Shown here: positions 5,568 to 27,738 of the stretch, piece by piece | How positions within the stretch are numbered: the first letter of the stretch is position 1 | How the letters are laid out: each line of letters starts with the position of its first letter | Source: an uncultured Candidatus Actinomarina sp. | GTDB taxonomy: Bacteria; Actinomycetota; Acidimicrobiia; Actinomarinales; Actinomarinaceae | Direction: 5' to 3' | Assembly: GCA_902593475.1 (NCBI GenBank) | Contig: CACJIM010000005.1 | Span: forward strand, 116-64,115 | Length of the DNA stretch: 64,000 bases | The notes under the pieces: model-generated | What the model was told of the DNA's origin: nothing | What the model saw: the letters and a program-made list of their open reading frames with translations, nothing else | Databases searched by the model: none | Made by a program: the position numbers and the translations under genes

Positions 5568-6580
5568 TATGAACTCATCTCCACAAAAATCTCATCGTCA
5601 CTATTTTCTATATATAGCTCAATTAAATTTCTTACATTCTCTGAATACAGCTTTGTAGCTGCATGTTTAACAGTGTTTAAGATATTTGTTTCACCAACTA
5701 TCTTTACACCATTAATCTCAACAACTTTGTCCACCTCTGTGCCTTCACAGTTTCCACCAGTACCAGCAGCTAGGTCAATAATTACAGAGTTCTCTTTCAT
5801 GTTTTCAACAGTTGACTTTTCAATCAAGACAGGTGCTTTCTTTCCTGGTATTTGAGCAAATGTTAAAACAATATCGCTATCAATTACTTGTTTCTTTAAT
5901 GCTTCTTGAATTTTCTGGTTCTCTTCTTCTGAGACTTCTTGTGCGTATACGCTATCTTGAGCTTCAGTGCTTGCTTCAACAAATTTAGCACCTAAAGACT
6001 CCACTTGGTCCTTAGCCTCTTTTCTAATATCGAAAGCCCACACTCTAGCCCCAAGTCTTTTTGCAGTGGCAATTGCTTGAAGGCCTGCAACCCCTACTCC
6101 AAGGATTAATACTTTTGATGGTTGGATATTTCCTGCTGCAGTTGTCATCATTGGTACGACGTCTGATGTCTCTTTTGCTGCTCGTAAGACTGAGGCGTAT
6201 CCAAGCAAGTTTGCTTGAGAAGAAAGGGCGTCTAGGTTTTGAGCTCTTGAGATTCTAGGAAGTTTAAAAAAACTTAATACTTTTAGATCAGGTCTTAAAC
6301 TTTTTATCTCTTCGATCTTATCAAAATCAAATATACCAATAAGAACTGCTCCTTCTTTAAGTTCCTTTATTGTTTTATCTTGGATATTTTCTACACAGGC
6401 AACAATGTCTAAATCACTTAAGTTAGATATATTTTTTACATTGTCTAGGGAAGAATCTGCGTAATTTAAGTAATCAAATATATTTTTCTCCAAATGAACA
6501 TCTGATGAATATTTCTCAATAGATTCAGGGTGAATTGGAGCCCTGTACCCATCAACATCTGTTAAAAATCCTATTTTCAT
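5567..6580 (-). CDS. pntAA: NAD(P) transhydrogenase subunit alpha, part 1 (AlaDH/PNT domain)
   Basis: Rossmann segment 'VLILGVGVAGLQAIATAKRLGARVWAFDIR' and operon context pntAA-pntAB-pntB. Confidence 0.9.
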   Translation of the reverse strand: MKIGFLTDVDGYRAPIHPESIEKYSSDVHLEKNIFDYLNYADSSLDNVKNISNLSDLDIVACVENIQDKTIKELKEGAVLIGIFDFDKIEEIKSLRPDLKVLSFFKLPRISRAQNLDALSSQANLLGYASVLRAAKETSDVVPMMTTAAGNIQPSKVLILGVGVAGLQAIATAKRLGARVWAFDIRKEAKDQVESLGAKFVEASTEAQDSVYAQEVSEEENQKIQEALKKQVIDSDIVLTFAQIPGKKAPVLIEKSTVENMKENSVIIDLAAGTGGNCEGTEVDKVVEINGVKIVGETNILNTVKHAATKLYSENVRNLIELYIENSDDEIFVEMSS

Positions 6581-6635
6581 ACTTTCCTAGTTTAAATATG
6601 CTGGCAACTTACTAAGAATTAAATAAAATACATAC

Positions 6636-7676
6636 ATGAATATTGCTGTTTTTAGTGACAAGTTTTCTGGTACGTTAAGCGCCATTGAAGTACTTAATAT
6701 TGTTCAAGGTAAGTTTTTGGATTCAAATATTAATGCAGACTTTTTCAGCGTTACCGATGGTGGGCAAGAAAGTACAGAAATTTTTAAAAGTCACAATTTT
6801 CAAACTCTTGAAAGTTTTGAAGCTTTGAATTGTGATAATTCTCTCTCAGTAGTTGAATCATTAAACATAAACGGGAGTGTTTTTTTTGAATCAGCTCAAT
6901 TAATTGGTGTTGATTCAGAAAATGAATCCATGTCGATAAATACAGGATGTTTGCTTGAGGCAGTTCAAAAAACAGAAGTTCTTGGAACAGGTGGCTCAAA
7001 AACTATTGATTTTGGAATAGGGCTCTTAAGTAAGTTGGGTATGGAATTCATCTCTAATGGTGAAACTTTAGTAAATCCTGTTCCCAAAGACTTTTCTTAT
7101 ATAGATCAAATTAAAGCAACCAATTTTAAATCTAATTTAGAAAATAGAATTTTAAGTGATACCAATATTTCTCTGCTTGGTGAGAATTCAGCTTTTGATG
7201 TTTTTGGACCTCAAAAAGGTTTATCTGAGAAAGATATACATAAACACAAATTAGAGGTTGAGAGATTGATAACGCTAATTGATAAAGAGCTTGTTTTAGG
7301 TTTAAATCCAACTGAAATTAACTCAGGAGCAGCAGGTGGTTTAACATTTGCATTAAATCAAATTCTTGGCTGTGAAATTGAAAACGGTGCAAAATACTTT
7401 TTAAAGGAAACAAATTTAATCAATCAATTAGAAAATTATGACATTGGTATCTTTTGTGAAGGAAGATTTGATGAATCATCATTAGAAGGAAAAATAATTG
7501 GAGAGTTGTTGAAAAATTTTAAAGGACGTAGGTATTTTTTGGGTGGGCAGTATACAGCAAAAAATGAAGATATTTTTACAAGCTATTTCCAGTGTGGGCC
7601 TGAAGGTGTCAGTGATCCAAAAAGCTCATTAGAGATTGCTACAAATGGATTAATTAAAGAAATACAAAAGCATTAA
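6636..7676 (+). CDS. Glycerate kinase family protein (divergent, short)
   Basis: 'FSDKFSGTLSAIEV' (cf. DSFKGSLSA.EV), 'DGGQES' (cf. DGGEGT) and C-terminal 'CEGRFDESSLEGKIIG' (cf. GEGRLD.Q...GK). Confidence 0.6.
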   Translation: MNIAVFSDKFSGTLSAIEVLNIVQGKFLDSNINADFFSVTDGGQESTEIFKSHNFQTLESFEALNCDNSLSVVESLNINGSVFFESAQLIGVDSENESMSINTGCLLEAVQKTEVLGTGGSKTIDFGIGLLSKLGMEFISNGETLVNPVPKDFSYIDQIKATNFKSNLENRILSDTNISLLGENSAFDVFGPQKGLSEKDIHKHKLEVERLITLIDKELVLGLNPTEINSGAAGGLTFALNQILGCEIENGAKYFLKETNLINQLENYDIGIFCEGRFDESSLEGKIIGELLKNFKGRRYFLGGQYTAKNEDIFTSYFQCGPEGVSDPKSSLEIATNGLIKEIQKH

Positions 7677-15234: not shown

Positions 15235-15836
15235 TGCAACTTCAATCACTAACTATCGAATTTATTCTTCTCCAAATTAGTGTCGCTTTTAGCCCAGGAC
15301 TAATTATTGCTTTGGTTGTTAATGAAGCAGTGCAAAAAGGAAGAAAAAATGCTCTTCAAGTTGCTTATGGTGCAGCAGCTGGTGCTATCGGAATAACCAT
15401 AATCACTGCTGCCGTCATTACTTACATCTTTTCATTAATTCCTGAGATACTCACTTTTATTTATATTTTTGGAATAATTTATATTGTTTATAAAGGAATC
15501 AAAACCATACAAGACAAAGGAGAGAGTCCTAAAGTCCTTGGCTCAGCATCTTTTTTGTCAGGATTTAAGATTAACCTTGCTAATCCAAAGATGTGGGTTT
15601 TCTATTTGTCTGTATTGCCTTTGTTTATAACAGATGAATCTAATATTTTTTCTTCTCTTATTTATCTTGGAATTGTGACAATATTTATTAATCTTTTTGC
15701 CGACATCTCATATGCTTTACTGAGTAGTTATTTATTCAATAATTCAACAACAAAAGTAAAAAGGTACATAAATATAATCAGCGGTGTCTGTTTGATTGGA
15801 ATTGGTATCTATTTATTCTTCAGTAGATTTATCTGA
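15234..15836 (+). CDS. LysE/RhtB-family amino-acid exporter
   Basis: 200 aa, about 6 TM, N-terminal 'FSPGLIIALVVNEAVQKGRKNAL..AYGAAAG' pattern, GTG start. Confidence 0.7.
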   Translation: MQLQSLTIEFILLQISVAFSPGLIIALVVNEAVQKGRKNALQVAYGAAAGAIGITIITAAVITYIFSLIPEILTFIYIFGIIYIVYKGIKTIQDKGESPKVLGSASFLSGFKINLANPKMWVFYLSVLPLFITDESNIFSSLIYLGIVTIFINLFADISYALLSSYLFNNSTTKVKRYINIISGVCLIGIGIYLFFSRFI

Positions 15837-16778
15837 ATCGTCAGAAGTTTTAGCTGAATCATCAGATTTCTCATCTTTAAAGAGTTCTGAAATTGCACCT
15901 ATGCTTCCAAGAGTGGCTGATAAATCCGCCGGTAAGAAAATCTTTGTAGCATTACCATCAGCGACTTTTTCAAGTGACTCTAAATACTTAATTGCAATTA
16001 GATCATTTGTTGGGTCACCTTTGTGTATTGCTGCAAAAACTTTTTCTATTGCTTCAGCTTCACCTTCAGCAATTGCAATTTTTTCATATTTTTGTGCATC
16101 AGCAACTTCCTTGAGAGCTTCTGCTTCACCAACTGCATCCAAAACTTGAGATTCTTTTCTTCCTTCTGCGGTAAGAATTGCTGCTCTCTTTTCACCTTCA
16201 GCTTCTGTAACTACAGCTCTTCTGTCTCTTTCAGCTTTCATAACTTTGTTCATAGCATCTTGAACATCTTGTGGTGGATCGATTCTCTGAATCTCAACTC
16301 TGACAACTCTTGTTCCCCATTTGTCAGTTGCTTCATCGAGAATAAGCTTTAGCTGAGTGTTAATAGTCTCTCTTGAGGTTAATGCAGCATCTAACTCTAA
16401 GTCACCAACAACATTTCTTAAGTTTGTTTGTGCTAATTTTGTAGCAGCTTGAATAAAGTCCCCAACATTATAAACAAGCTTTTTTGGATCAGTTGGTTCA
16501 TAGTAAATAATTGCATCAACTGTTATAGTTACATTGTCTTTTGTAATAACTTCTTGAGGAGGAACATCGATTACTTGCTCTCTCATATCTACAATGATTA
16601 TTCTCTCTAAACCGGGTATAACAATATTTAGTCCAGATTTTGCCTCTCTATGAAACTTACCTAATCTTTCAACAAGTCCAGTCTCGAAAGGTCTAATAAT
16701 TCTGAATATTCTAAATAATACAACCCCGAGTAGTGCAATTATGACTACCCATCTAACTATTCCAAATATAATTTCCAT
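15813..16778 (-). CDS. SPFH/band-7 (stomatin/prohibitin-like) membrane scaffold protein
   Basis: N-terminal TM, then the SPFH core ('LERIIIVDMREQVIDVPPQEVITKDNV', 'RVEIQRIDPP') and an Ala/Glu-rich coiled-coil tail. Confidence 0.9.
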   Translation of the reverse strand: MEIIFGIVRWVVIIALLGVVLFRIFRIIRPFETGLVERLGKFHREAKSGLNIVIPGLERIIIVDMREQVIDVPPQEVITKDNVTITVDAIIYYEPTDPKKLVYNVGDFIQAATKLAQTNLRNVVGDLELDAALTSRETINTQLKLILDEATDKWGTRVVRVEIQRIDPPQDVQDAMNKVMKAERDRRAVVTEAEGEKRAAILTAEGRKESQVLDAVGEAEALKEVADAQKYEKIAIAEGEAEAIEKVFAAIHKGDPTNDLIAIKYLESLEKVADGNATKIFLPADLSATLGSIGAISELFKDEKSDDSAKTSDDSDKSTEE

Positions 16779-16787
16779 ATTTTAAGT

Positions 16788-17222
16788 TTAACCTTCCTTC
16801 GTTTGTACTTCTAATTTAGTTCCATTTACACTTGTAACTTTTACCTCTGATCCTGCTGGAATTCTTTTATCAAGTGAAACTACTTGCCAGTCATCTCCAT
16901 AAACATGCTGCAGGGTTGATTCATACACATCCAACTCTTCTGTTGTAACAAAAGTCATGCCTATATATTTATTTGCTCCTTCAGTAAAGCTTGTACTTGT
17001 TTTCTTATCTTTGTTTCTGGGTCCAAAAACTTTTACTGATAAATACACCCCAACTAGGCTAAACACAATAAACGTAGAAAGCTGAATATTTTGACTATCT
17101 GTGAATAAAGAAGCTATCCCAGCGAAAAAAGATCCTATGGCAAAAGGAAGTATAAAAAATGTTGGAACTAAGAGTTCTGCCAATAATAGAACGGCTGCTG
17201 CAATAAACCAGATTTGTGTCAT
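16788..17222 (-). CDS. NfeD-family membrane protein (stomatin operon partner)
   Basis: 144 aa: 3 TM plus a C-terminal OB-like beta domain ('WQVVSLDKRIPAGSEVKVTSVNGTKLEV'). Classic NfeD-SPFH gene pair. Confidence 0.8.
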   Translation of the reverse strand: MTQIWFIAAAVLLLAELLVPTFFILPFAIGSFFAGIASLFTDSQNIQLSTFIVFSLVGVYLSVKVFGPRNKDKKTSTSFTEGANKYIGMTFVTTEELDVYESTLQHVYGDDWQVVSLDKRIPAGSEVKVTSVNGTKLEVQTKEG

Positions 17223-17231
17223 AATGACAAT

Positions 17232-17600
17232 CTAATTATCTTGATCTTCCTTTTCAAGCTGTTCTTGCTCAAACCTGTTAAGAGCTAATAAAAACATTAC
17301 AAAAAGAATTCCAGAACCAACTAAGAAAGTTAATGGAATAATTCTTATTTCGAATGCATTTAAACCATCTATGTTTGCTGGAGCTGGGCCACGTGGAGCA
17401 TAAAGGATGAAGAAAATTGAATTAATAACTCCCCAGCCAAATATTGCAGCTCCAGTGATTAAAAAACCTAATCTCTTTCCAACATTTGTAGCGTTTAACA
17501 AAAAAGTAGATCCAGCAAATGTGATTATCGAACCTATGAACATGAGTATTCCAGTAACTAATAAGTTAGAGGACAAAAGTGATCTCATTATTTCACGCAT
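17232..17600 (-). CDS. Small polytopic membrane protein, last gene of the Rieske/cyt b cluster
   Basis: 122 aa, about 3 TM, 8-nt overlap with the cytochrome c gene. No family motif. Confidence 0.55.
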   Translation of the reverse strand: MREIMRSLLSSNLLVTGILMFIGSIITFAGSTFLLNATNVGKRLGFLITGAAIFGWGVINSIFFILYAPRGPAPANIDGLNAFEIRIIPLTFLVGSGILFVMFLLALNRFEQEQLEKEDQDN

Positions 17601-19017
17601 CAGGTGTCATTCCTCTCAAATAATCAATAATTAGCTCAATATCAGATTGAGGAAGAACAGCTCCAAAACCTGGCATTTTTCCTCCACCAACACCGTTGAC
17701 TCCATACGCTTTACCATTTACAGAACCTTTAACAATAAAATCTATCAAGTCTTCCCTCTGCTTAAACTGGATATTGGCTCTACCTGCTCTTAGTGCAGGT
17801 CCCAAACCACCAGATGCTATCTCTTTAGTATATGCTACACCAGCAGAATAACCTGCTGTATGACATCTTGCACAGTAAGCGTTAAATAATCCAACTGCTC
17901 TTTTAGCTTTTTCTAGATCTCCATCAAAAGTTGAATCAGCAATTTCATCGAATGAAACTTCCCAAAGTTTTTCTTCCAATGCTTTTTCAAGAAATGCTAA
18001 ACCAGTTTCAGCCTCTTTGATAAATTTATCGTATCCCTCTGCAACAATTGTTATGTTGATTAATTCGGATTCAAGTTGTGATAAGTAACCGCTTGCAACA
18101 GATTTGTCTTTTCTTCCAGGGATAGATTCTTCGTTATCTGGGTCTAAATTTAATATAGAAGTTCCCAAAACTTCAGAAACGGTACTGCTGTAAGCTGATA
18201 ACTCTGTTTCAGTAGAGTCACTTAAACCGTCTTCATCTGTATCAATTCCACCTTCTTTGGAAAGTAGTGCTGAAACATCTTCTACTGCTTTTTGAACAAC
18301 AGGTAATTTTCCTGGTGCGTCTTTTACGCTTTGAATTAATTCTTTTTGCCTTGCAATTTCATTCTCAACTAATAGCTCAGATGTATCGAGTCTTGATAAT
18401 GAGCTATTGATATTCATTTCAATAGTTTGTAGCTCTTCTGATTGTGATATTTGAAAGTGATGCATGTACTCAATCAAGTCATCCAATTGTCCATCATTCA
18501 TTGGACCACCACCTTCTAATCCCCATGCAGGCATTGGTGAGTTTGCACGTCCATAAATTAACCAATAACGAACTTCTTCATCATCATATCTATAGAAAAC
18601 ATTGTTTATTGCAGGAGCAGTCCATGTAACATTTATTCCACTTCTCTTTTCAACATATGAAGCTGCACCACCAGATCCGTCAACACCATGGCAGTTACCA
18701 CATCCGAATTCTTCATATAGATGTTCTCCTCTTTCTACAGATACCTCATCAAATTCTTCTACAAAACCTTCTTGTCTTTCTTGTTCTCCAAGGTAATAAA
18801 GAGGAATCATGATAGTTAAAAGTGAAGCAATTAAAACTGCAACAGTTAGAGTTCTATCAAGTGTTTTTGTTTCTAAATCATCATCATTTCGATATTTTGA
18901 CAAGTTTGGTGCATAATCAGAGACTTTACCTGAGCCTCTAAAGCCTGCAGCAGTAAAAAATGCTAGAGCAGCAATTATCCCTAAAGCAATTAATGTAATT
19001 GAAAGTGAACTTGTCAT
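17593..19017 (-). CDS. Membrane-anchored diheme cytochrome c (QcrC-like) with long inter-domain insertion
   Basis: Two CxxCH motifs ('CGNCH', 'CARCH') with downstream Met-ligand motifs ('SPMPAWG', 'GKMPGFG'). Two N-terminal TM helices. Confidence 0.88.
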   Translation of the reverse strand: MTSSLSITLIALGIIAALAFFTAAGFRGSGKVSDYAPNLSKYRNDDDLETKTLDRTLTVAVLIASLLTIMIPLYYLGEQERQEGFVEEFDEVSVERGEHLYEEFGCGNCHGVDGSGGAASYVEKRSGINVTWTAPAINNVFYRYDDEEVRYWLIYGRANSPMPAWGLEGGGPMNDGQLDDLIEYMHHFQISQSEELQTIEMNINSSLSRLDTSELLVENEIARQKELIQSVKDAPGKLPVVQKAVEDVSALLSKEGGIDTDEDGLSDSTETELSAYSSTVSEVLGTSILNLDPDNEESIPGRKDKSVASGYLSQLESELINITIVAEGYDKFIKEAETGLAFLEKALEEKLWEVSFDEIADSTFDGDLEKAKRAVGLFNAYCARCHTAGYSAGVAYTKEIASGGLGPALRAGRANIQFKQREDLIDFIVKGSVNGKAYGVNGVGGGKMPGFGAVLPQSDIELIIDYLRGMTPDA

Positions 19018-19018
19018 A

Positions 19019-19882
19019 CTATTCCTCTGTAGTTAGAGCTATACAAGATAAACCTTGGGGATACTTCACTGACATACCTGGTGCTCGAGGTGATTCAATA
19101 ATTGTACCCGTGTCAATAACAAGTCTTCCATTTACATTGGCGACATTAAACCTATCAAGATTTCTTGGAGCTGGACCTGCAAAATATTCACCAACCATAT
19201 TATATTTTGAACCATGGCAAGGACATTCAAATCCTTGTGATGAGTTACACCATGGAACCCTACAGCCTAAGTGAACACATCTTTGATAAACAGCTACTAA
19301 ACCATCAGTAATTGTGGAGCCCGTCGCAAACTGAGAATTTGCCGCCGCAGCCGCGTCCAATGGAAGCACATAAGCTCTTGCTGCTGGAATAAAAGCTGGA
19401 ATAACGGAACCATCAGCTTGAAATATTTGACTCTTTATATCTTCAATCGGACCTGCATCAACTTTAGATCCAAAACCTCCAGAAACTTTTGGCCAAAAAA
19501 ATCCTAGCCATGCAATTGCTTGAATACCTGCAAAAGCACCGAATGAAATTCTTAGAGCTTTTGTTAAAAACTGTCTTCTAGTTATTCCTGCTTCCTCTTC
19601 GGAGATCTCTTCATAAATAACTTTTTCTTCAAGTTTTACAGCACCATCTGATTCAACAACTGGTTCATCAATTTCTTCAACAGTTGCTTCAGTTTCGCCT
19701 TTTGGCATCTCTGGTTCTAAAAAGTTGGTTTGAGATTTATCCTCTTTTAGAGCTTTTTTATCAAGATTTTTTTTCCAATTAAAACTTTTTGGACCTCTAC
19801 CAGTGACAATAACTACGATACCAACAATGCCTAAAAACCCAACCAAAGCAAAGGCTGCAAAAGATAATTCAACTATGCTCAT
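19019..19882 (-). CDS. Rieske [2Fe-2S] subunit of a quinol:cytochrome c oxidoreductase
   Basis: 'CVHLGCRV' plus 'CPCHGSKY' boxes. Internal twin-arginine motif 'TRRQFLTKAL' before TM2. I moved the start to Met at 19882, which gives an ATGA overlap with the upstream stop; the track start is 19897. Confidence 0.9.
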   Translation of the reverse strand: MSIVELSFAAFALVGFLGIVGIVVIVTGRGPKSFNWKKNLDKKALKEDKSQTNFLEPEMPKGETEATVEEIDEPVVESDGAVKLEEKVIYEEISEEEAGITRRQFLTKALRISFGAFAGIQAIAWLGFFWPKVSGGFGSKVDAGPIEDIKSQIFQADGSVIPAFIPAARAYVLPLDAAAAANSQFATGSTITDGLVAVYQRCVHLGCRVPWCNSSQGFECPCHGSKYNMVGEYFAGPAPRNLDRFNVANVNGRLVIDTGTIIESPRAPGMSVKYPQGLSCIALTTEE

Positions 19883-20685
19883 TCGAAATGAATCCAATCA
19901 AGCAAATCATCAAACCATATTCCATCAATCCAAGGATAAGTCCAGTTCCAGCCAGGACCTCTAAAAAGTACTCCAATAATAGTAAGTACACCAGCGCCAG
20001 CTAAGAAAAAGGTATAGAACATAATTGCAAATTTTCTTTTAGAAGGATGTGTTTCTGGGTTTCTGTCTATGTATGGGAAAGCCATCCATAGAACGACACC
20101 TAATACTAAAGGAATCATAACTCCGGCAATTTGAGGATCCCAATATGACAATAATTCCTGCAAGCCCAAAAAATACCAAGGTGCTTTTGCAGGGTTAGGT
20201 GTTACGTTTGGATTTGCTTCTTCAAGAAGAGGTGCTTGCAATATTGCTGATAGAAAAATTAAAAAAGCTGTCATTGCCATCAATGAAACAAATTCTGGAA
20301 GCATCAAATGCGGCCAAGTGTTAACTTTATCAACCGGCTCAGAAACTGATTTTTGAATTGGTTTTGCTTTTACAACAGTTAACAATCGTTGAGTTACCTT
20401 TACTTCAGGTGCAAAATCAACTTCTTCAGGAGTATCAGGTTCGGGAGCTTTTGCTGCTGGAGCTGGAGTCTCTGCTGCTGGAGCTGGAGTCTCTGCTGCT
20501 GGAGCTGGAGTCTCTGCTGCTGGAGCTGGAGTCTCATCAATAGTTTTTACCTCTGGCTCTTTAGAGATAACTGTTGGATCTGATTCACCTTTCATTTCAG
20601 CTAAAGCTTGTTCAACACTGATGCCCAAAGCTTTTGCTCTTGCCTCCGCAGATCTCTGCAACAAATGTTCTGGAATATCTACCAT
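19879..20685 (-). CDS. Cytochrome b C-terminal half (subunit IV-like) with N-terminal 'RSAEARA' module and (ETPAPAA)4 linker
   Basis: The C-terminal ~160 aa carry 3 TM and a Qo-loop box 'KAPWYFLGLQELL' at the PEWY position. The N-terminus is 'MVDIPEHLLQRSAEARAKALGISVEQALAEM'. Confidence 0.85.
   Translation of the reverse strand: MVDIPEHLLQRSAEARAKALGISVEQALAEMKGESDPTVISKEPEVKTIDETPAPAAETPAPAAETPAPAAETPAPAAKAPEPDTPEEVDFAPEVKVTQRLLTVVKAKPIQKSVSEPVDKVNTWPHLMLPEFVSLMAMTAFLIFLSAILQAPLLEEANPNVTPNPAKAPWYFLGLQELLSYWDPQIAGVMIPLVLGVVLWMAFPYIDRNPETHPSKRKFAIMFYTFFLAGAGVLTIIGVLFRGPGWNWTYPWIDGIWFDDLLDWIHFE
20453..20536 (-). repeat. Perfect 21-bp in-frame tandem repeat x4 (encodes ETPAPAA x4)
   Basis: The plus-strand unit gctgctggagctggagtctct occurs at 20453, 20474, 20495 and 20516. 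The last copy has 1 mismatch. Confidence 0.95.
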
Positions 20686-20691
20686 AAGTCT

Positions 20692-21465
20692 CTACAAAGG
20701 TCCTGAAATTCCGCCATCTTTTCTAACTCTCCAGAAATGGACAGCCATAAAGATAACAATAATAAATGGTAAGAAAAGTACATGAAGAACATAAAATCTT
20801 AACAGTGTAGCTGTAGTTGCCTCAAGTCCGGCAAACAATCCGAATTTGGCCTGAGCTCCAATAACGGGTGTGTAGCCAGCCATATTACCTCCAACAGTAA
20901 CAGCCCATATAGCCAGCTGGTCCCAGGGAAGAAGGTAGCCTGTAAATGACAACAATAGAGTTAGCAAAAGTAAAATTACTCCTATGACCCAGTTGAACTC
21001 TCTCGGTGCTTTATATGCTCCGTGATAAAAGACTCTAGACATATGAAGGAATACAACTAAAACCATAAGGTGTGCACCCCATCTATGCATATTTCTAACA
21101 AGCGAACCAAATGCGATACTGGTTTGTAAGGTCTGAATATCAACATATGCAAGTTCAGTTGGACGGAAATAAAACATTAGCCAAATCCCTGTAATTGTTA
21201 AGACGATGAAAAGAAAGAAGCTCAATCCACCCAGGCATAGAGTGTAAGATAGCCTAACGCCGTGTCTTTTAACTTTTACTGGATGGAGGTGGTACAAAAC
21301 ATTATTCATAACAACATACGACCTGTTTCTAGGACTATCTACATAACCTTTTCTAAAAGGAGATCCTGGTCGGAAAATACTGGACATTAATTTTCCACCT
21401 CTGAAACTATCACTAGCAGTAGCTCTTGCCTCTTTAATCCTGTCTCGAAGGGATAATTTTTGCAT
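20692..21465 (-). CDS. b6-type cytochrome b (four-helix N-terminal half)
   Basis: Heme-ligand pairs 'MHRWGAHLMVLVVFLH' (H-x13-H) and 'LHVLFLPFIIVIFMAVH' (H-x14-H). 'TLCLGG' sits at the position of the b6 'YCLGG' heme-ci cysteine. Confidence 0.9.
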   Translation of the reverse strand: MQKLSLRDRIKEARATASDSFRGGKLMSSIFRPGSPFRKGYVDSPRNRSYVVMNNVLYHLHPVKVKRHGVRLSYTLCLGGLSFFLFIVLTITGIWLMFYFRPTELAYVDIQTLQTSIAFGSLVRNMHRWGAHLMVLVVFLHMSRVFYHGAYKAPREFNWVIGVILLLLTLLLSFTGYLLPWDQLAIWAVTVGGNMAGYTPVIGAQAKFGLFAGLEATTATLLRFYVLHVLFLPFIIVIFMAVHFWRVRKDGGISGPL

Positions 21466-21474
21466 TATATAATT

Positions 21475-21921
21475 CTAAAGCCTTCCATATATATATCCGT
21501 GTCTGTCGTTTCTCTCACCTGAATCCTCATCCCACGGAGCTTTGTATACCCCGTTTTGAACAGCTTGATCTGCTAATGAGCCAGCAAACTTTCCGAGAGA
21601 AATTACTCCTGTTGGGCATCTATCTACACACAATGCACATCTAGTACAAGCTTCCTCATCCACGACAAAAAATCCTGGGGCTTCAGATTCATCTGGGGCC
21701 TCAACATTTATTGAGTCGTCAATTGCATCAACAGACAAATAATGAATACATTTCCAAGGACATATATCAACACACCCTTCACATAAAATACACTCTGCTT
21801 CATCTATATGTAAAAATTGTTTTGGACGGACACGAGAAGTAACTTTTTCTGTATCAACCATTGCAAGATTGTACTTCTTTTCAAACTCTGGCATCTCTAT
21901 TAAGACTTCTGATTTAGGCAT
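21475..21921 (-). CDS. 2x[4Fe-4S] ferredoxin-domain protein encoded inside the Rieske/cyt b operon
   Basis: 'CILCEGCVDICP' and 'CTRCALCVDRCP'. No TM segment. 8-nt overlap with the upstream gene and 9 nt before cyt b. Confidence 0.85.
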   Translation of the reverse strand: MPKSEVLIEMPEFEKKYNLAMVDTEKVTSRVRPKQFLHIDEAECILCEGCVDICPWKCIHYLSVDAIDDSINVEAPDESEAPGFFVVDEEACTRCALCVDRCPTGVISLGKFAGSLADQAVQNGVYKAPWDEDSGERNDRHGYIYGRL

Positions 21922-22507
21922 CTTGCTCCACCCTTACGACCTCTTTGCCGTAATCAGAAATTCTTGATTTAGAACTTTCTATTTTGTTATTTACGTCTTG
22001 AATTAAGTATGCGACAACCAAACCTGCGATTAAAAAGTTAGTTGAAATACCTAACTGTATGATGTCTTTTAACGCAGCAAGGCTTAGGCCAATTTCATTA
22101 TTTAAAAATAGTATTGGTGGAAACTGTATAAACTCTCTTTGACCTGTCCACTCTAAAGGTCCTTGTGCTAGGTTCAACCACTCAGATGGAACGATGCCTA
22201 AGAGAATTGACATTTCGATCCATGTTAGAAATGCGAAATAAGTAGCTTTTGCCCAAGTTAATTCCTTCTGATTCCATACCACCAGTACTAAACCAAGCAA
22301 AAGAATTTGACTAGCACCAAATGCTATAAGCTGACCAATAGATTGTGGTAACCACCCTCGTGGAATCCAGTTAAAATAATTTACTACTTCACCTTCAGAA
22401 AGACCAGCAAAATGAGCAATGATAACTCCAATGGTCATACCACCGAGCCCTGAAACAATTGAAACTAAACCTATTCTGTATCTAAATTTATAAATTGTAT
22501 AAATCAA
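21914..22507 (-). CDS. Polytopic membrane protein, first gene of the Rieske/cyt b operon
   Basis: 197 aa, about 4-5 TM. No family motif recognised. Confidence 0.55.
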   Translation of the reverse strand: MIYTIYKFRYRIGLVSIVSGLGGMTIGVIIAHFAGLSEGEVVNYFNWIPRGWLPQSIGQLIAFGASQILLLGLVLVVWNQKELTWAKATYFAFLTWIEMSILLGIVPSEWLNLAQGPLEWTGQREFIQFPPILFLNNEIGLSLAALKDIIQLGISTNFLIAGLVVAYLIQDVNNKIESSKSRISDYGKEVVRVEQDA

Positions 22508-22642
22508 ATTTCCTCAAACCTTACCTATATATAATATCGTAAGTTTGGATAAAAATATAAATTGAATTATTATCTTTTTTAAAAAATTTTCGTCAACACC
22601 AAGCTACATTTTTCCAATATAATAGTAAAGTCATATTGAATA

Positions 22643-24046
22643 TTGGCTAAATTGATGAAAATAAAGTTGTTTCCAAAAAACGAACAAGAACTTTCAAAAC
22701 TCTTTGTTTTGATTTTTCCACTTACCTTATTGCTATCACTTACTATTTCATTTTTAAAAAATGCGTACTTTACTTTTGCAAACCTTCTACCAAACAACTC
22801 AGTTTTTAACTATGGATTCCTAGACAGGCTCGACACACAGGCAGCGTTAGGTTTAGTTTTCGGTGCGTCACTTTGTTTGAGCTTTTCATATTTATTTTCA
22901 AAATCACTAGGTAGATCAATGGTATTATTTCCGCTTGTATTTTTAACTTTACTAGGTGTTGTTGGGACTGAATTTTTAGACATACTTGTAAACTTCTTTT
23001 TTCAAAACACAGCATACGATTTAGGCAATAGTTCCCTGCTCATTCTTTTAAAAATTCTGGTTGTATTTGGGTTATTTGGACTTGCCACTCTAAACCTACT
23101 TGCTAAAAAAGAAGCCTCAATTTTTGCAAGTGCACAATTTATATATGGTGCGGTAGTCTTTTACTTAATTTCATTGTTTATTGTTAGAGCAGAATTAAAT
23201 GTTTTTTCAGACATATTTTTGGTTAACTCTTTATATACAGGTACACATATATATGTTGGTGTTGCTTTCATATATATGGCAATAGTTCATTTTTTAATGA
23301 CTAGACCACTCCAGGCAGTATTATTCAACAAAACCCTTTCATCTATTACATTTTGGGGTTTTTTGTTCCTATTGCCTTGGACAAATTTTAAATATTATTA
23401 TGGCTCGGTACTTCCAAATTGGATTGAAAATATATCTATCTATCTCTCAATGAGTCTTGTTGTTCCTTTGTTAGCTTTCCTAGTTAATTACATCAAAACA
23501 ATTCAAACTAAGGAAGTTGATGGAGTAGGATCACTAAATCTGCTTAACTTTTCAGTAATCCTTTTTTCTATAACAACAATTTTTCATATGATTTCAAGTT
23601 TTGAAAACCTTCTTCCAATTTTAGGGATTACAAATTTTGTTAATGTTATTACCTATGGGCTCATTGGGTCTCTTGTGCTAGCAACAATATCTTTAAGCTA
23701 TTATTTAATACCTAAGTTATATGGAAGAGAAGTTGCTTACTCTAGACTTGAAGACATTACTTTTTTTGGTTTCAAAATATCATATCTTTTATTGTTGATT
23801 AACAATACTGTATTGGGTGTTAACTCAGGTTATTCATGGAATGCGGGAGCAAATGCAGGAAACCCAACAATTTATGGAGAAGGGTATGGTATCGTCTGGA
23901 GTCTTATAAGTTTTAATTTTTCTTTAAATACTTTCATCTCTCTACTTTTACTTGGTAGTGGTTTTCTATATTTAATTTCTGTTTTACGAGCAATCTCATC
24001 TGGTTCAATAACAACTGTTGAAGAAATGGTTTATAGCAATGATTGA
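22643..24046 (+). CDS. CcoN-like (heme-copper oxidase subunit I-like) polytopic membrane protein lacking the canonical metal-ligand histidines
   Basis: 467 aa with about 12 hydrophobic spans. 'LSYYLIPKLYGREVAYSRLEDITFFGF' and 'LSSITFWGFLFLLPW....LPNW' resemble CcoN helix VII and XI-XII motifs recalled from memory. Only 3 His in the whole protein. Followed by CcoO-like and cyt c genes. The track start is TTG; an ATG lies at 22655. Confidence 0.55.
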   Translation: MAKLMKIKLFPKNEQELSKLFVLIFPLTLLLSLTISFLKNAYFTFANLLPNNSVFNYGFLDRLDTQAALGLVFGASLCLSFSYLFSKSLGRSMVLFPLVFLTLLGVVGTEFLDILVNFFFQNTAYDLGNSSLLILLKILVVFGLFGLATLNLLAKKEASIFASAQFIYGAVVFYLISLFIVRAELNVFSDIFLVNSLYTGTHIYVGVAFIYMAIVHFLMTRPLQAVLFNKTLSSITFWGFLFLLPWTNFKYYYGSVLPNWIENISIYLSMSLVVPLLAFLVNYIKTIQTKEVDGVGSLNLLNFSVILFSITTIFHMISSFENLLPILGITNFVNVITYGLIGSLVLATISLSYYLIPKLYGREVAYSRLEDITFFGFKISYLLLLINNTVLGVNSGYSWNAGANAGNPTIYGEGYGIVWSLISFNFSLNTFISLLLLGSGFLYLISVLRAISSGSITTVEEMVYSND

Positions 24047-24135
24047 GGTGTTAGCAGAAATTTTTGAATTCATAGCTGGAGGCTGGTACACGAAGCGAAA
24101 AAAGAAACCTTTGGAAACTAATGAGGAGAACTCAA

Positions 24136-24933
24136 ATGAGTGATTTAGTAAATAAAGTAGCTGAATTATTAAATGCACCAGTTGATCTTGTTCAGAGGTC
24201 TGCAGAGGCAAGAGCGCAGGCATCAGGAAATTCTGTTGAAGAGGTATTAAGTTCTTGGGCTGGTGGCGAAAGTGTAGCTGCATCCGCTCCAAAAGAAGAA
24301 GCTCCTGTTGAAGAGGCTCCAAAAGAAGAAGCTCCTGTTGAAGAGGCTCCAGCTGCAGAAGTTGTAGAGGAGACTGTTGAGGAAGTAGTTGAAGAAACTG
24401 AAACCCAGGAGGTTGTTGAGGAAGTGGTTGAAGAAGTTGTTGAGCTAAAAAATGAAAGTGCTTTAAGTTTTATTTCAGGAGTTCTTTTAGTTGGTCTATT
24501 TACATTTCTATTCGCCTTTGTGATTCCAAAAAACCAAGCTACTGATATTGTTAGTGACTCTCTAAATAACAGCGTTAGTGCATCAAATGAAGTAATTAAG
24601 GGAGCTGAAGTATACGCAGAGTTGAATTGTCAATCCTGCCATACACAGAATGTTAGAACTCTCATTCCAGACACTCAAAATGGTAAAGTTCTAAAAAATA
24701 AATTTGCAAATGAAACGTTAATTAATAATGTTGGAAATATAAGACTTGGACCAGATCTTTCCACCAGCGCAACACGTGAACCAACAAACAATAGTCAATG
24801 GTTAACTCGATACCTATCAGACTCAACATCTGTCAATAGGGATATACCTCATCCAAGTTATGACTTTCTAGATGATGACGATTTGGAATATCTCGTAACT
24901 TATTTACTATCATTAGGAGAATCAAATGAGTGA
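24136..24933 (+). CDS. CcoO-like membrane-anchored monoheme cytochrome c with N-terminal 'RSAEARA' module
   Basis: 'CQSCHTQNVR', 'RLGPDLS' and 'PSYDFL' match FixO/CcoO hallmarks. Start moved to 24136 (MSDLVNKV..) by identity with the paralog start, with AGGAGAA 5-6 nt upstream in both. Confidence 0.75.
   Translation: MSDLVNKVAELLNAPVDLVQRSAEARAQASGNSVEEVLSSWAGGESVAASAPKEEAPVEEAPKEEAPVEEAPAAEVVEETVEEVVEETETQEVVEEVVEEVVELKNESALSFISGVLLVGLFTFLFAFVIPKNQATDIVSDSLNNSVSASNEVIKGAEVYAELNCQSCHTQNVRTLIPDTQNGKVLKNKFANETLINNVGNIRLGPDLSTSATREPTNNSQWLTRYLSDSTSVNRDIPHPSYDFLDDDDLEYLVTYLLSLGESNE
24286..24345 (+). repeat. Perfect 30-bp in-frame tandem repeat x2 (APKEEAPVEE x2)
   Basis: gctccaaaagaagaagctcctgttgaagag occurs at 24286..24315 and again at 24316..24345. 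Confidence 0.95.
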
Positions 24934-25858
24934 TTTAGTAAATAAAGTAGCAGAGATTTTAAACGCACCAGTTGACTTGGTGCAGCGTTCAGCGGAAGCA
25001 AGGGCTGCTGCCTCTGGAGTTTCAGTTGATGACGTTTTAAGTTCTTGGGCTGGTGGCGAAAGTGTAGCTGCATCCGCTCCAAAAGAAGAAGCTCCTGTTG
25101 AAGAGGCTCCAAAAGAAGAAGTTGTTGTTGAAGAAACAGTTGAAGAAGAAGCTCCTGTTGAAGAGGCTCCAAAAGAAGAAGTTGTTGTTGCAACTGCTGT
25201 AACACGACAAGTAACTAAATCTATTTCCTTTGCTAATGAAACAATGGGTATAAAAATTAATTCAGAAAACCTTCTTCCTAAGTGGCTCAACTTTAGTTTT
25301 ATTATCATTCCATTATTTATCCTCATAGGACTTATTAGCTCTTCTAACACACAAGAGTGCGGTGAAAGAGGGATGCTAAATGTTGATAGAAAGTCGCAAG
25401 AGGCTGTAAATTGTGATGGATCTCCCTATGAAGGTAGAGGTGTTGCTGCAACAAACACAGTAAATTATATTGCACTCGGTCAAGAAGTTTATGCTGGTGC
25501 TGCTGCGTGTGCTGGCTGTCACGGAGGTGGCGGTGGCGGTGGAGTTGGTCCAGCATTTACTGGTGGTGCGTTATATACCACTTTCCCAACATGTGCAGAC
25601 CACACTAAATGGATTCAACTCGGATCTGCAGGTTGGCAAGCTGAAGTAGGACCTACTTATGGTGCTGAAGATACAGTCTCTATTGGAGGAATGCCAGGAT
25701 TTCAAGGAAAGCTGACAGAAGATGAATTATATGCTGTTGTTGTTTTTGAAAGAGTAGTTTTTGGAGGCGGAAACACTGAAGAAGTACTTAGTGACTGTGG
25801 GCTTTTAGAAACTGAAGAGGAAGACGTAACCACAGAGGCTGTTAGCTCAACTCCTTAA
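24926..25858 (+). CDS. Membrane-anchored class I monoheme cytochrome c (CcoP-domain-like) with N-terminal 'RSAEARA' module
   Basis: 'CAGCHGGGGGGGVGPAF' plus 'GGMPGF' (Met ligand). TM segment 'FSFIIIPLFILIGLISS'. 8-nt overlap with the upstream gene. Confidence 0.85.
   Translation: MSDLVNKVAEILNAPVDLVQRSAEARAAASGVSVDDVLSSWAGGESVAASAPKEEAPVEEAPKEEVVVEETVEEEAPVEEAPKEEVVVATAVTRQVTKSISFANETMGIKINSENLLPKWLNFSFIIIPLFILIGLISSSNTQECGERGMLNVDRKSQEAVNCDGSPYEGRGVAATNTVNYIALGQEVYAGAAACAGCHGGGGGGGVGPAFTGGALYTTFPTCADHTKWIQLGSAGWQAEVGPTYGAEDTVSIGGMPGFQGKLTEDELYAVVVFERVVFGGGNTEEVLSDCGLLETEEEDVTTEAVSSTP
25083..25190 (+). repeat. 48-bp exact direct repeat at 60-bp period (25083..25130 and 25143..25190), in frame
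   Basis: aagaagaagctcctgttgaagaggctccaaaagaagaagttgttgttg occurs twice and encodes EEAPVEEAPKEEVVV. Confidence 0.95.
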
Positions 25859-26392: not shown

Positions 26393-26833
26393 ATGGTTAA
26401 ACAAAAACGAGAGAAAAGAGTCGTAGGATGGAAAGAGCATGCGGCTTTACCTGATCTAAATGTTAAAAGTGTTATTGCAAAAATAGACACTGGAGCAACA
26501 TTAGCTTCAATTGATGCTGCCGATATAAAAATTGTTACTAGAAATAAGGTCAAATACGTAAAGTTCAAGGTAATGAAAAGAAATAATACAGTAAGAAAAA
26601 CATCTGCTCCACTAGAGGGATATAAAAGGATAAAAAGTTCTAATGGTGATGTTGAGAGAAGACCCTATATAAAAACAACTCTATTAATGGATGGGATTTC
26701 TAAAAAAATAGAACTCACATTAACTGACAGAGGCCCAATGGATTACACAATGCTTATTGGAAGAAAAGCATTAGGTAGAAGATGGGTAGTTAACCCATCT
26801 ATAAGTTTTCTAACAAAGCCTGATGGAAATTAA
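26393..26833 (+). CDS. RimB-like retropepsin-fold protease (DUF785, RimK-associated)
   Basis: 'GWKEHAALPDLNVKSVIAKIDTGATLASIDA' carries the DTGA aspartic-protease motif. It lies directly upstream of rimK. Confidence 0.65.
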   Translation: MVKQKREKRVVGWKEHAALPDLNVKSVIAKIDTGATLASIDAADIKIVTRNKVKYVKFKVMKRNNTVRKTSAPLEGYKRIKSSNGDVERRPYIKTTLLMDGISKKIELTLTDRGPMDYTMLIGRKALGRRWVVNPSISFLTKPDGN

Positions 26834-26835
26834 AT

Positions 26836-27738
26836 ATGAAACTTGGAATACTTTCGCAGGATATAAGACTTTATTCAACAAGTAGGCTTTATGAATCGGC
26901 TAAAAACAGAGGTCATGATACAGAAGTAGTCAGTTATTTACGCTGTTATATGAACATAGCAAAAGCTAAACCTCGAATCTTCTTTCAAGGTAGGCAAATG
27001 AATTTTGATGTGGTGATTCCAAGAATTGCTGCAACATGGACTTTTTATGGAGCTGCGGTTGTTAGACAGTTTGAATTAATGGGAGCTTTGTCTGCAAACT
27101 CTTCGGCCTCAATTAGTAGATCAAGAGATAAATTGAGAGCATTACAGTTAATTGGAAATAGTGGTGTTGAAATGCCTATTACAGGATATGTTCATCTTTC
27201 AAGAGACATAGAGTCAGTATTAAAAACTGTTGGTGAACCTCCATACGTCATTAAGTTGCTTGAAGGAACTCAAGGAAGAGGAGTTGTATTAACCGAAACT
27301 ATGGAAGCTGCGATTAGTGCTATAGAAACAATGAAAAAGATTGATGCAAACATATTAATTCAAGAGTTTATAAGCGAGTCCAAAGGAGAAGACATCAGAG
27401 CAATTGTTGTTGGTGATAAAGTTGTAGCCTCGATGAAACGTAAAGCCAAGCCTGGAGAGTTTCGTTCAAATGTTCATCTAGGTGGAAGCGTTGAAAATTA
27501 TGAATTAAACGAACAAGAAAAAGAAAGTGCAATTAAGGCAGCAAAAGTACTTGGCCTTTCTGTTGCTGGAGTTGATTTAATTCAATCAAATAGAGGTCCA
27601 CTGGTGTTAGAGGTTAATTCTTCACCTGGATTAGAGGGAATTGAAAAAGCTAGTGGTATAGATGTTGCTGATAAGATCATCGAATACCTAGAATATGAAC
27701 ACAGCAACAGAGATAAATCTAAACCAATAGATATTTAA
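26836..27738 (+). CDS. rimK: RimK-family ATP-grasp alpha-L-glutamate ligase
   Basis: 300 aa. 'YVIKLLEGTQGRGVVL', 'ILIQEFI..SKGEDIRAIVVG', 'EFRSNVHLGG' and 'AGVDLI.....PLVLEVNSSPGLEGIE'. Confidence 0.88.
   Translation: MKLGILSQDIRLYSTSRLYESAKNRGHDTEVVSYLRCYMNIAKAKPRIFFQGRQMNFDVVIPRIAATWTFYGAAVVRQFELMGALSANSSASISRSRDKLRALQLIGNSGVEMPITGYVHLSRDIESVLKTVGEPPYVIKLLEGTQGRGVVLTETMEAAISAIETMKKIDANILIQEFISESKGEDIRAIVVGDKVVASMKRKAKPGEFRSNVHLGGSVENYELNEQEKESAIKAAKVLGLSVAGVDLIQSNRGPLVLEVNSSPGLEGIEKASGIDVADKIIEYLEYEHSNRDKSKPIDI

Follow-up and report, generated by a model that had tools for sequence, protein, structure and literature searches.

Three open reading frames in a 64,000-nucleotide stretch of Candidatus Actinomarina DNA (class Acidimicrobiia; hereafter the window) begin alike, and all three encode membrane subunits of the respiratory chain. 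What is the segment that they share, on which side of the membrane does it lie, and what might it do there? An HMM built from the three sequences and run against the six-frame translation of the window gave exactly three matches (E 1e-21 to 1e-23; next best E > 7), at the starts of the ORFs beginning at 20685 (minus strand), 24136 and 24926 (both plus strand), just where a preliminary description of this locus had placed a common module. The module has 35 residues in its short form and 46 in its long form. The two long copies are not fully independent of one another, because they lie in a direct repeat of 213 nt (24132..24344 and 24922-25134, plus strand; 86% identical, 790 bp apart) that spans the module together with the first part of the linker and whose 3' part is the same DNA in both copies.

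Pfam matches uphold the proposed identities of the carriers. The short, Met-type module (residues 1–35; 20581..20685, minus strand; E 1.6e-21) opens a subunit IV-like ORF (20685..19879, minus strand) with the N-terminus MVDIPEHLLQRSAEARAKALGISVEQALAEM. This carrier is of the PetD type: it matches PF00032 with 35.9 bits against a cut-off of 20.7, its membrane domain (19879..20310, minus strand) has three TM helices (residues 126–155, 183–207, and 218–244) with the motif PWYF, here APWYF, after the first, and its gene lies directly 3' of a cytochrome b6-like gene. Both belong to a bc-complex operon (17593..22507, minus strand; Pfam matches) that also encodes a 197-aa membrane protein, a 2x[4Fe-4S] protein, a Rieske protein, and a dihaem cytochrome c, in a gene order that is kept at loci L070 and L071. 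The long, Trp-type modules (residues 1–46 in each) open two cytochromes encoded downstream of a divergent CcoN-like haem-copper oxidase subunit I (22643..24046, plus strand; PF00115, 42 bits; TIGR00780, 37 bits against a cut-off of 583). The first (module at 24136..24273, plus strand; E 1.3e-23) is a CcoO/FixO-like monohaem cytochrome that matches PF02433 (FixO) with 33 bits against a cut-off of 29.6 and TIGR00781 with 22 bits against 200; its anchor, its CxxCH motif, and its position after the CcoN-like gene all fit cbb3 subunit II. The second (module at 24926..25063, plus strand; E 7e-23) is a CcoP-like anchored cytochrome c with a Cytochrome_CBB3/Cytochrom_C match. The window oxidase is cbb3-like but diverges from the canonical enzyme.

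In all three proteins the module is followed, as had been described, by a P/A/E/V/T-rich stretch of 60 to 90 residues and then by the first TM segment. The subunit IV linker (residues 36–125; 20311..20580, minus strand) is P/A/E/T/V-rich with ETPAPAA repeats and a net charge of –7, and it shows no secondary structure at a pLDDT of about 41 in a full-length AF2 model of low quality (pLDDT 53.8) that we use qualitatively. The CcoO-like linker (60 aa; 24274..24453, plus strand) is an acidic E/V/A/P stretch made of 30-nt repeats with a net charge of –19, while that of the CcoP-like cytochrome (69 aa; 25064..25270, plus strand) carries –11. Across all carriers the tether spans 60 to 130 residues. 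A cleaved signal sequence is ruled out: module and linker are hydrophilic and acidic, the N-terminus lacks a hydrophobic segment, and the first hydrophobic segment begins only at residue 107 (CcoO-like), 116 (CcoP-like), or 126 (subunit IV). The module is cytoplasmic, as had been supposed, because the CxxCH motifs (residues 165 and 195) follow the single TM anchors of the two cytochromes (residues 107–134, with the haem c domain at 24454..24933, and residues 116–143, with the haem c domain at 25271..25858; both plus strand), because the PetD topology agrees, and because the module also occurs on KorA, a soluble cytoplasmic protein.

AF2 predicts the long module as a confident three-helix unit (pLDDT 88.9; helices 3–12, 16–30, and 34–41 in the CcoO-like copy). 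The short form corresponds to its last two helices, which the low-quality subunit IV model places at residues 6–20 and 24–31 (pLDDT about 70). The core helices follow the motif P-E-x-L-(L/V)-x-R-S-A-E-A-(R/K)-A-x-A-x-G-x-(S/T/P)-V-(E/D)-x-V-L-x-x-(W/M)-x-G. Its polar residues (Arg, Ser, and Arg/Lys) are more than 90% conserved across 274 unique copies, and these positions therefore suggest a binding surface. We conclude that the module is predicted to form an autonomous small helical domain, of two core helices with an optional preceding helix, that is specific to Acidimicrobiia. It had not been recognized as a described domain, and our searches agree. Pfam and NCBIfam, queried with isolated modules and full proteins, hold no family for it; narrow as well as broad profiles, run against PDB sequences, brought up designed repeat proteins or noise only; no Foldseek match in PDB or BFVD had an E below 1; and we found no description of it in the literature. 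The suggested likeness to a helix-extended-helix fold was not borne out, as neither the Pfam matches nor the Foldseek list contains SAP, LEM, Rho_N, or HeH.

The module is not confined to the three proteins of the window. It is rare: an exhaustive search by HMM through 1.84 billion representatives yielded 421 clusters, all of those with reliable labels from Acidimicrobiia, in which it is conserved class-wide from genomes of 33% GC to high-GC genomes. (A 46-aa profile search of a 5.8-billion database returned only fragments of up to 81 aa, cut by linker frameshifts or contig ends, from which carriers cannot be read, and a full-length subunit IV search found close relatives only.) It is always N-terminal and cytoplasmic, always precedes a long low-complexity linker, and is frequently arrayed in tandem, with one to seven copies per carrier. 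Its carriers fall into at least six classes, which belong to three respiratory loci and to one soluble TCA-cycle enzyme: bc subunit IV, a small bc-operon membrane protein, the CcoO-like and CcoP-like cytochromes, a caa3-adjacent polytopic membrane protein, and KorA. In the window the small membrane protein (122 aa; 17232..17600, minus strand), encoded after the dihaem cytochrome c, has no module, and blastp links it (E 1e-26 to 1e-30) to the C-terminal domains of homologues in other Acidimicrobiia (P0241 and P0249) that bear three to seven N-terminal modules. KorA, the alpha subunit of 2-oxoacid:acceptor oxidoreductase and a member of a ferredoxin-reducing enzyme family, carries the module in one Actinomarina subclade only (L058; TIGR03710, 649.5 bits against a cut-off of 482.75, with POR_N and POR domains). 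The module is missing where CcoO is fused to CcoN, and CcoO therefore lacks a free N-terminus. At the loci examined, c-type cytochromes are membrane-anchored or fused to an oxidase subunit. No cultured organism carrying the module was identified, and the single IMG/VR match proved to be a cellular CcoO/cytochrome c fragment, so that viral carriage was dismissed. We rejected the SPFH/NfeD pair of the window as a conserved partner because it is missing beside the operon at L070 and L071; the carriers have no conserved partner gene beside them, and no neighbor of unassigned function is shared by all carrier loci examined.

The preliminary description had read the copies as one tag on two complexes. 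We found instead two sequence subtypes that divide almost perfectly between oxidase-side and bc-side carriers: 143 of 144 oxidase-side copies are of the Trp type, and subunit IV copies have Met, Leu, or Ile in 255 cases against Trp in 14. Trp-type modules sit on cbb3-like oxidase subunits and the caa3-linked membrane protein, and Met/Leu-type modules on bc-side proteins and KorA. What stands of the earlier reading is a portable module on several unrelated carriers, cytoplasmic, not a signal, and new; the single tag and the helix-extended-helix likeness do not.

What might such a module do? We tentatively propose, with somewhat less than even confidence, that it is a tethered protein–protein docking domain of the aerobic respiratory chain; protein binding and the choice of partner are what we infer. 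The Met/Leu type would mark bc-complex subunits (plus KorA in one subclade) and the Trp type cbb3-like oxidase subunits and the caa3-linked protein; modules would bind each other, or the cytoplasmic face of a neighboring complex, and so keep the bc complex and the oxidases within mutual reach. In favor of docking are the three window copies, which match far above chance, and a linker that is unstructured in prediction and biased in composition. The mostly respiratory carriers, the clean subtype partition, the conserved polar residues, the confident three-helix prediction, the cytoplasmic location, the absence from fused CcoO, the tandem arrays, and the purifying selection described below appear to point the same way. 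Against it, carriage by KorA does not fit a purely respiratory role, the tandem-copy proteins that exceed a Pfam helix-turn-helix (HTH) cut-off hint at another ancestry, copy number varies so widely that module stoichiometry is not fixed, a conserved partner gene is absent, gene conversion accounts for much of the identity between the two adjacent copies, and the subtype pair could reflect an old duplication without functional meaning. A stronger version, which we think unlikely, is a two-letter cytoplasmic address code. Met-type modules, on the bc complex and KorA, would pair with the Trp type on the terminal oxidases. Through such multivalent, heterotypic contacts on flexible tethers, with as many as seven modules on a subunit, a respiratory patch would form from the bc complex, both oxidases, and, in some lineages, a ferredoxin-reducing TCA enzyme. 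The supercomplex would then be held from the cytoplasmic side by tethered docking domains, not through transmembrane or periplasmic interfaces.

Known docking and swinging-arm systems likewise place small tandem domains on Pro/Ala-rich linkers. The E2 chain of 2-oxoacid dehydrogenases has N-terminal lipoyl domains and a peripheral subunit-binding domain (PSBD), 35 to 80 aa each, in variable tandem copies on Ala/Pro-rich linkers; the PSBD itself is a two-helix protein-docking domain of about 35 aa. The module shares this beads-on-a-string layout, but it has no match to PF02817 (E3_binding, the PSBD family) or to related models and no conserved cofactor-bearing lysine, and its carriers are membrane respiratory subunits, not an acyltransferase core. 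The RIIa dimerization/docking domain of PKA and the docking domains of PKS/NRPS are N-terminal helix-turn-helix hairpins of about 30 to 45 aa on a flexible linker that serve docking only. They may be functional analogues of the module, although they occur in other taxa and on other carriers and have neither sequence nor Foldseek similarity to it. Among known connectors, actinobacterial bcc-aa3 has the dihaem QcrC, and bc1-cbb3 supercomplexes have an anchored cytochrome cy with a long flexible linker. These devices, too, hold the bc complex close to the oxidase or carry electrons to and fro on a tether, but they bear haem and lie in the membrane or on the periplasmic side, whereas the module is cytoplasmic, cofactor-free, and present on several subunits of both partners. 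Bacterial III–IV supercomplexes are covered by reviews and structures (PMC8361435, PMC10556555).

Of the alternatives to docking between complexes, an adaptor for one or two shared soluble cytoplasmic factors (for example a chaperone or protease, a regulator, a ferredoxin, or a factor for assembly or cofactor insertion) survives best, and we hold it to be possible, if rather unlikely. It would account for the same conserved polar positions on unrelated carriers, soluble KorA included; a 2x[4Fe-4S] protein is among the products of the bc operon, and KorA comes from a family of enzymes that reduce ferredoxin; an N-terminal module emerges first in translation; and two subtypes could match two partners. 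However, no conserved neighbor gene of unassigned function is common to all carrier loci, these loci yielded no candidate partner, and arrays of up to seven copies are more typical of avidity or cross-linking than of the recruitment of one factor.

Doubtful in our estimation is a module without a specific ligand, which would cap an entropic spacer with a folded unit and so aid biogenesis or stability. It could retain the N-terminus in the cytoplasm, shield the long tail from FtsH-type proteolysis, or form a polyanionic brush around the complexes, and it would suit the extreme N-terminal position, the linker that always follows, the evolutionary lability of linker length, linker composition, and copy number, and the strongly acidic linkers of Actinomarina (–7 to –19 in the window). 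Yet the linkers of high-GC relatives are neutral and Pro/Ala-rich, a topology determinant would be of no use to KorA, the inner copies of a tandem array are no caps, and a cap would need neither more than 90% conservation of Arg/Ser/Arg nor a strict Trp versus Met split by carrier.

A degenerate HTH that binds nucleic acid and ties complexes or mRNAs to the nucleoid or ribosome is, we think, very improbable, although HTH families are the only ones that the module weakly resembles in sequence. In its three-helix form a helix-Gly-x-Pro-helix pattern, e.g. SVEEAAAALGMPEKLLRRS, resembles HTH domains such as PF20432 (Xre-like; found N-terminally in Xre/MbcA/ParS antitoxins) and further tri-helical families; P0245, with five copies, scores 39.5 bits against PF20432 (gathering score 25.8; P0253 scores 22.3); HTH_23, HTH_31, and Sigma70_r4 match weakly; three carriers have a precomputed PF20432 annotation; and the middle helix is mildly basic (mean +1.1). 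The cut-off is exceeded, however, only in multi-copy proteins through their summed score, and the lead was not sustained on 97 diverse single modules: PF20432 matched one (E 0.012), only one to three touched any HTH family (E 0.003–0.08), and about 97% had no such match. The window modules match no HTH family, PF20432 included at E ≤ 10, no HTH protein is among the Foldseek matches, net charge is negative on average (–1.2; 41 of 252 copies positive) as are Actinomarina linkers, and the subunit IV copy lacks the first helix of the putative HTH. Moreover, the proteins on which it stands in tandem are membrane proteins and not transcription factors.

Gene conversion between the two adjacent window copies is indicated by the identical 3' DNA of their repeat, and adjacent oxidase-side copies are identical in DNA in 17 of 25 genomes; conversion thus explains much of the identity between adjacent copies. 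We discarded the idea that concerted evolution marks binding partners in co-evolution, since the DNA, too, is identical in most pairs of identical copies. The core of the window long copies differs at 16 synonymous and 5–6 non-synonymous codons, which places the protein under selection. The totals over seven well-diverged pairs, each from within one genome, are 114 synonymous and 25 non-synonymous differences (about 4.6:1), copies at distant loci of one genome differ at 17 synonymous and seven non-synonymous codons, and copies hundreds of kb apart keep their protein sequence despite 16–18 synonymous differences. These codon counts show strong purifying selection on the module. That it is a neutral repeat without function of its own, which duplication and gene conversion have spread, might be suggested by the 213-nt repeat, the identical DNA, and the short DNA repeats of the linkers, but this reading is largely refuted by these ratios and by class-wide conservation, and is scarcely tenable.

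To our knowledge, the ways in which bacterial respiratory complexes are kept close are membrane or periplasmic contacts. If the docking reading is right, Acidimicrobiia would do it otherwise, by a strongly conserved cytoplasmic domain that occurs throughout the class, has no cofactor, and is joined by long tethers to bc-complex subunits and those of two oxidase systems, its two subtypes matching the two halves of the respiratory chain. The idea is cheap to test, as the module can be synthesized as a peptide of 35–46 residues. If there is no ligand, the module would still be a new lineage-specific domain family of abundant marine Actinobacteria. In many public assemblies, modules and repetitive linkers lead to gene calls that are frameshifted or cut short and to misannotation as stand-alone "hypothetical proteins", Xre-like HTH, or "ArfA", which a dedicated family model would correct.

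We found that the N-terminal module is a real, undescribed and class-specific cytoplasmic domain carried on disordered tethers. The three open reading frames reported in the preliminary description were confirmed in both coordinates and N-terminal sequence, and an HMM of their three copies recovered exactly these three from a six-frame translation of the window (E 1e-21 to 1e-23; next best segment, E>7). The first carrier is a PetD-type subunit IV (PF00032, 35.9 bits) encoded 3′ of a cytochrome b6-like gene, the second is a FixO/CcoO-like monohaem cytochrome (PF02433, 33 bits) encoded 3′ of a divergent CcoN-like gene, and the third is a second monohaem cytochrome c, membrane-anchored. This CcoN-like oxidase subunit I, encoded upstream of both cytochromes (22643–24046, plus strand), is very divergent, scoring 42 bits against PF00115 and 37 bits against TIGR00780 (ccoN), for which the cut-off is 583. 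The window belongs to Candidatus Actinomarina (OCS155, class Acidimicrobiia), the label also borne by loci whose proteins are 90–100% identical.

On subunit IV the module spans 35 residues, and on both cytochromes 46. It is followed by linkers of 90 (subunit IV), 60 (CcoO-like), and 69 (cytochrome c) residues, abundant in Pro, Ala, Glu, Val, and Thr and underlain by short DNA repeats, with net charges of −7, −19, and −11, respectively; the first hydrophobic segments begin at residues 126, 107, and 116. Because CxxCH comes after the single transmembrane helix in both cytochromes, their N-terminal part is cytoplasmic and the haem domain faces outward. The three helices of subunit IV are arranged as in PetD, with APWYF following TM1, and the PetD/b6f topology puts its N terminus inside. 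Thus, the earlier argument for a cytoplasmic module holds. AlphaFold2 predicted the long form as a confident three-helix unit (pLDDT 88.9; helices 3–12, 16–30, and 34–41), the last two helices of which make up the short form. The predicted model of full-length subunit IV was poor overall (pLDDT 53.8), with two N-terminal helices (pLDDT ~70), ~85 unstructured residues (pLDDT ~41), and then three transmembrane helices.

That the domain is undescribed, as first proposed, was borne out by the lack of a robust match in Pfam, NCBIfam, PDB, or Foldseek searches. Isolated modules gave nothing in Pfam at E≤10 except a sub-threshold match to DUF1805, carrier N termini had no match in NCBIfam, PDB sequence searches with narrow and 97-sequence profiles returned designed repeat proteins or noise, and Foldseek found no match below E=1 in PDB and BFVD. 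No mention of the module was found in the searchable literature, and the suggested likeness to a helix-extended-helix was unsupported. P0245, a subunit IV protein with five copies, reaches 39.5 bits against PF20432 (Xre-like HTH), and three carriers bear a precomputed PF20432 annotation. However, only 1–3 of 97 individual modules touch any HTH family (E 0.003–0.08), and the copies in the window matched none. The module may have an HTH ancestry, but membership is not established. Public names of carriers vary: one source calls a carrier “ArfA”, and Xre-like HTH is the annotation of a few.

We searched 1.84 billion cluster representatives exhaustively with HMMER and obtained 421 clusters at E≤0.001, in which a single protein contained as many as 7 matched stretches. 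Scanning 185,579 species genomes with a sequence pattern gave 68 loci, nearly all labelled Actinomarina, OCS155, or Acidimicrobiia (Candidatus Spongiisociaceae, among these labels, is a member of Acidimicrobiia). Two loci are instead labelled Gammaproteobacteria and one Acidobacteria, from the MAGs LRMED-300, Co_bin_463, and N075bin71 (loci L002, L035, and L040). Their bc/oxidase loci are 62–99% identical to Actinomarina/Acidimicrobiia proteins, and for this reason we consider them probably mis-binned contigs or wrongly labelled. A 4.2-kb contig of a viral collection (IMGVR_UViG_3300006481_000153) is a fragment encoding an Actinomarina CcoO-like protein and cytochrome c, and we rejected a viral origin. 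In many public assemblies, the module is annotated as a separate hypothetical protein of 50–80 amino acids (P0019, P0025, P0029, P0035, P0111, P0114, and others; 7026–7256 of L002), owing to frameshifts in the repetitive DNA of the linker or to a contig end at this point.

Across this set, the module is N-terminal, variable in tandem number, and carried by quinol-to-oxygen respiratory proteins and occasionally by KorA, the 2-oxoacid:acceptor oxidoreductase alpha subunit. Subunit IV is the commonest carrier (mean 2.4 copies, maximum 6); the CcoP-like cytochrome c averages 1.55 copies (maximum 5) and the CcoO-like cytochrome ~1. In other lineages, as many as 7 copies occur on the small membrane protein whose gene follows that of the dihaem cytochrome c; the homologue of this protein in the window (17232–17600) has none. 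Another carrier, a polytopic membrane protein of 374–400 amino acids without any family match, is encoded directly 3′ of a caa3 oxidase operon (CoxII-CoxI-CoxIII-CoxIV-CtaG) at locus L004 and near CoxI/CoxII at L042. In some Acidimicrobiia, the caa3-linked carrier has a C-terminal cupredoxin-like domain (P0354, 488 amino acids, related to 5965–7158 of L042), with weak SoxE/sulfocyanin and plastocyanin matches and a C-x4-H-x4-M motif, hinting that it may be an electron carrier of the chain. In one Actinomarina subclade, KorA (TIGR03710, 649 bits), a soluble cytoplasmic enzyme, bears the module at the far end of a Glu/Val/Pro linker of ~130 residues. A KorA homologue at 3–2762 of L056 is extended at each terminus by a very long acidic Glu/Val/Pro stretch, and its module lies within the N-terminal stretch. 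No CcoO module occurs in L071, a distant Acidimicrobiia contig in which oxidase subunit I is fused to the FixO domain (CcoN-CcoO), which fits a need for a free cytoplasmic N terminus. Single representatives on short metagenomic contigs (P0307, P0320, P0275, P0263, and P0259) join the module in frame to ribosomal protein uL3, a short-chain dehydrogenase, a ParB-like domain, an ExbB/MotA-like protein, or a Lys/Ala-rich basic tail; several terminate in adapter-derived sequence, and they may be chimeric assemblies through repeated module DNA.

The module falls into two subtypes, distinguished by a signature position late in the last helix. Trp occupies this position in 86 of 87 copies from cytochrome c, all 44 from CcoO, and all 13 from the caa3-linked protein, whereas subunit IV has 255 Met/Leu/Ile copies and 14 with Trp; KorA and the small bc membrane protein follow the subunit IV pattern. 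In Actinomarina, the Trp-type always has an extra N-terminal helix, and the first Met-type copy begins directly at the Pro-Glu motif. The preliminary view of one tag on two complexes was too simple, as the two subtypes track the bc and oxidase halves of the chain.

Among 274 unique copies, the consensus is P(98%)-E-x-L(85)-[LV]-x-R(94)-S(91)-A(92)-E-A(99)-[RK](96)-A(97)-x-A-x-G(89)-x-[STP]-V-[ED](88)-x-[VI]-L(85)-x-x-[WM](84)-x-G. The adjacent long copies in the window form a 213-nt direct repeat, identical in DNA over codons 38–65, and their core has 16 synonymous and 5–6 nonsynonymous codon differences. In 17 of 25 genomes the adjacent copies are 100% identical in DNA, indicating recurrent gene conversion, which makes within-genome identity of this pair unusable as evidence of co-evolution. 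Seven well-diverged pairs together have 114 synonymous and 25 nonsynonymous differences. Copies at distant loci of the same genome likewise differ mainly at synonymous sites (caa3-linked protein and CcoO, 17 synonymous and 7 nonsynonymous; KorA and subunit IV, 10–13 and 8), and therefore selection maintains the protein sequence. We conclude that the module is under strong purifying selection.

The best-supported mechanism, and the function that we infer, is tethered protein–protein docking. We favor it because of the conserved polar surface positions, multivalency, and long flexible linkers, because it is restricted to carriers that are functionally linked, and by analogy with known docking domains. 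Small tethered domains of the docking type are already known. Docking might join respiratory complexes to one another, a reading that we hold tentatively; if Met–Trp pairing is true, it would mean an unusual cytoplasm-side organization of the respiratory chain. Recruitment of a shared soluble factor by the module is a rather less likely account, and a ligand-free cap or spacer is unlikely. Nucleic-acid binding is very improbable, as the module is net acidic (mean charge −1.2) and so few copies touch HTH families. A neutral repeat is scarcely credible for a sequence under such selection.

The bc operon architecture is kept in distant megabase-scale contigs. Ahead of cytochrome b, the operon starts with a 197–202-residue membrane protein without assigned identity and then a 148-residue 2x[4Fe-4S] ferredoxin-like protein, an arrangement conserved across the class (window 21475–22507, minus strand; 6075–7138 and 6074–7132 of the distant Acidimicrobiia contigs L070 and L071), which suggests an iron–sulfur subunit at the cytoplasmic side of the bc complex. 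Directly downstream of the operon, on the same minus strand, lie paired genes for NfeD (16788–17222) and an SPFH/Band 7 protein (15813–16778). Neither L070 nor L071 has the pair here, leaving the earlier suggestion of SPFH as a partner unsupported. Just past the oxidase cluster (26393–27738, plus strand) are genes for a RimK-type ATP-grasp ligase, from the family of poly-glutamate ligases, and for a putative zinc or aspartyl protease (PF05618); no link was found between these and the genetically encoded Glu-rich linkers. In the second half of the window (38000–64000), GC is much lower (24–29% versus 33–40%), and the genes (glycosyltransferase, FkbM methyltransferase, DegT aminotransferase, asparagine synthase-like, and AT3-SGNH acyltransferase) are those of a typical cell-envelope glycan biosynthesis island.
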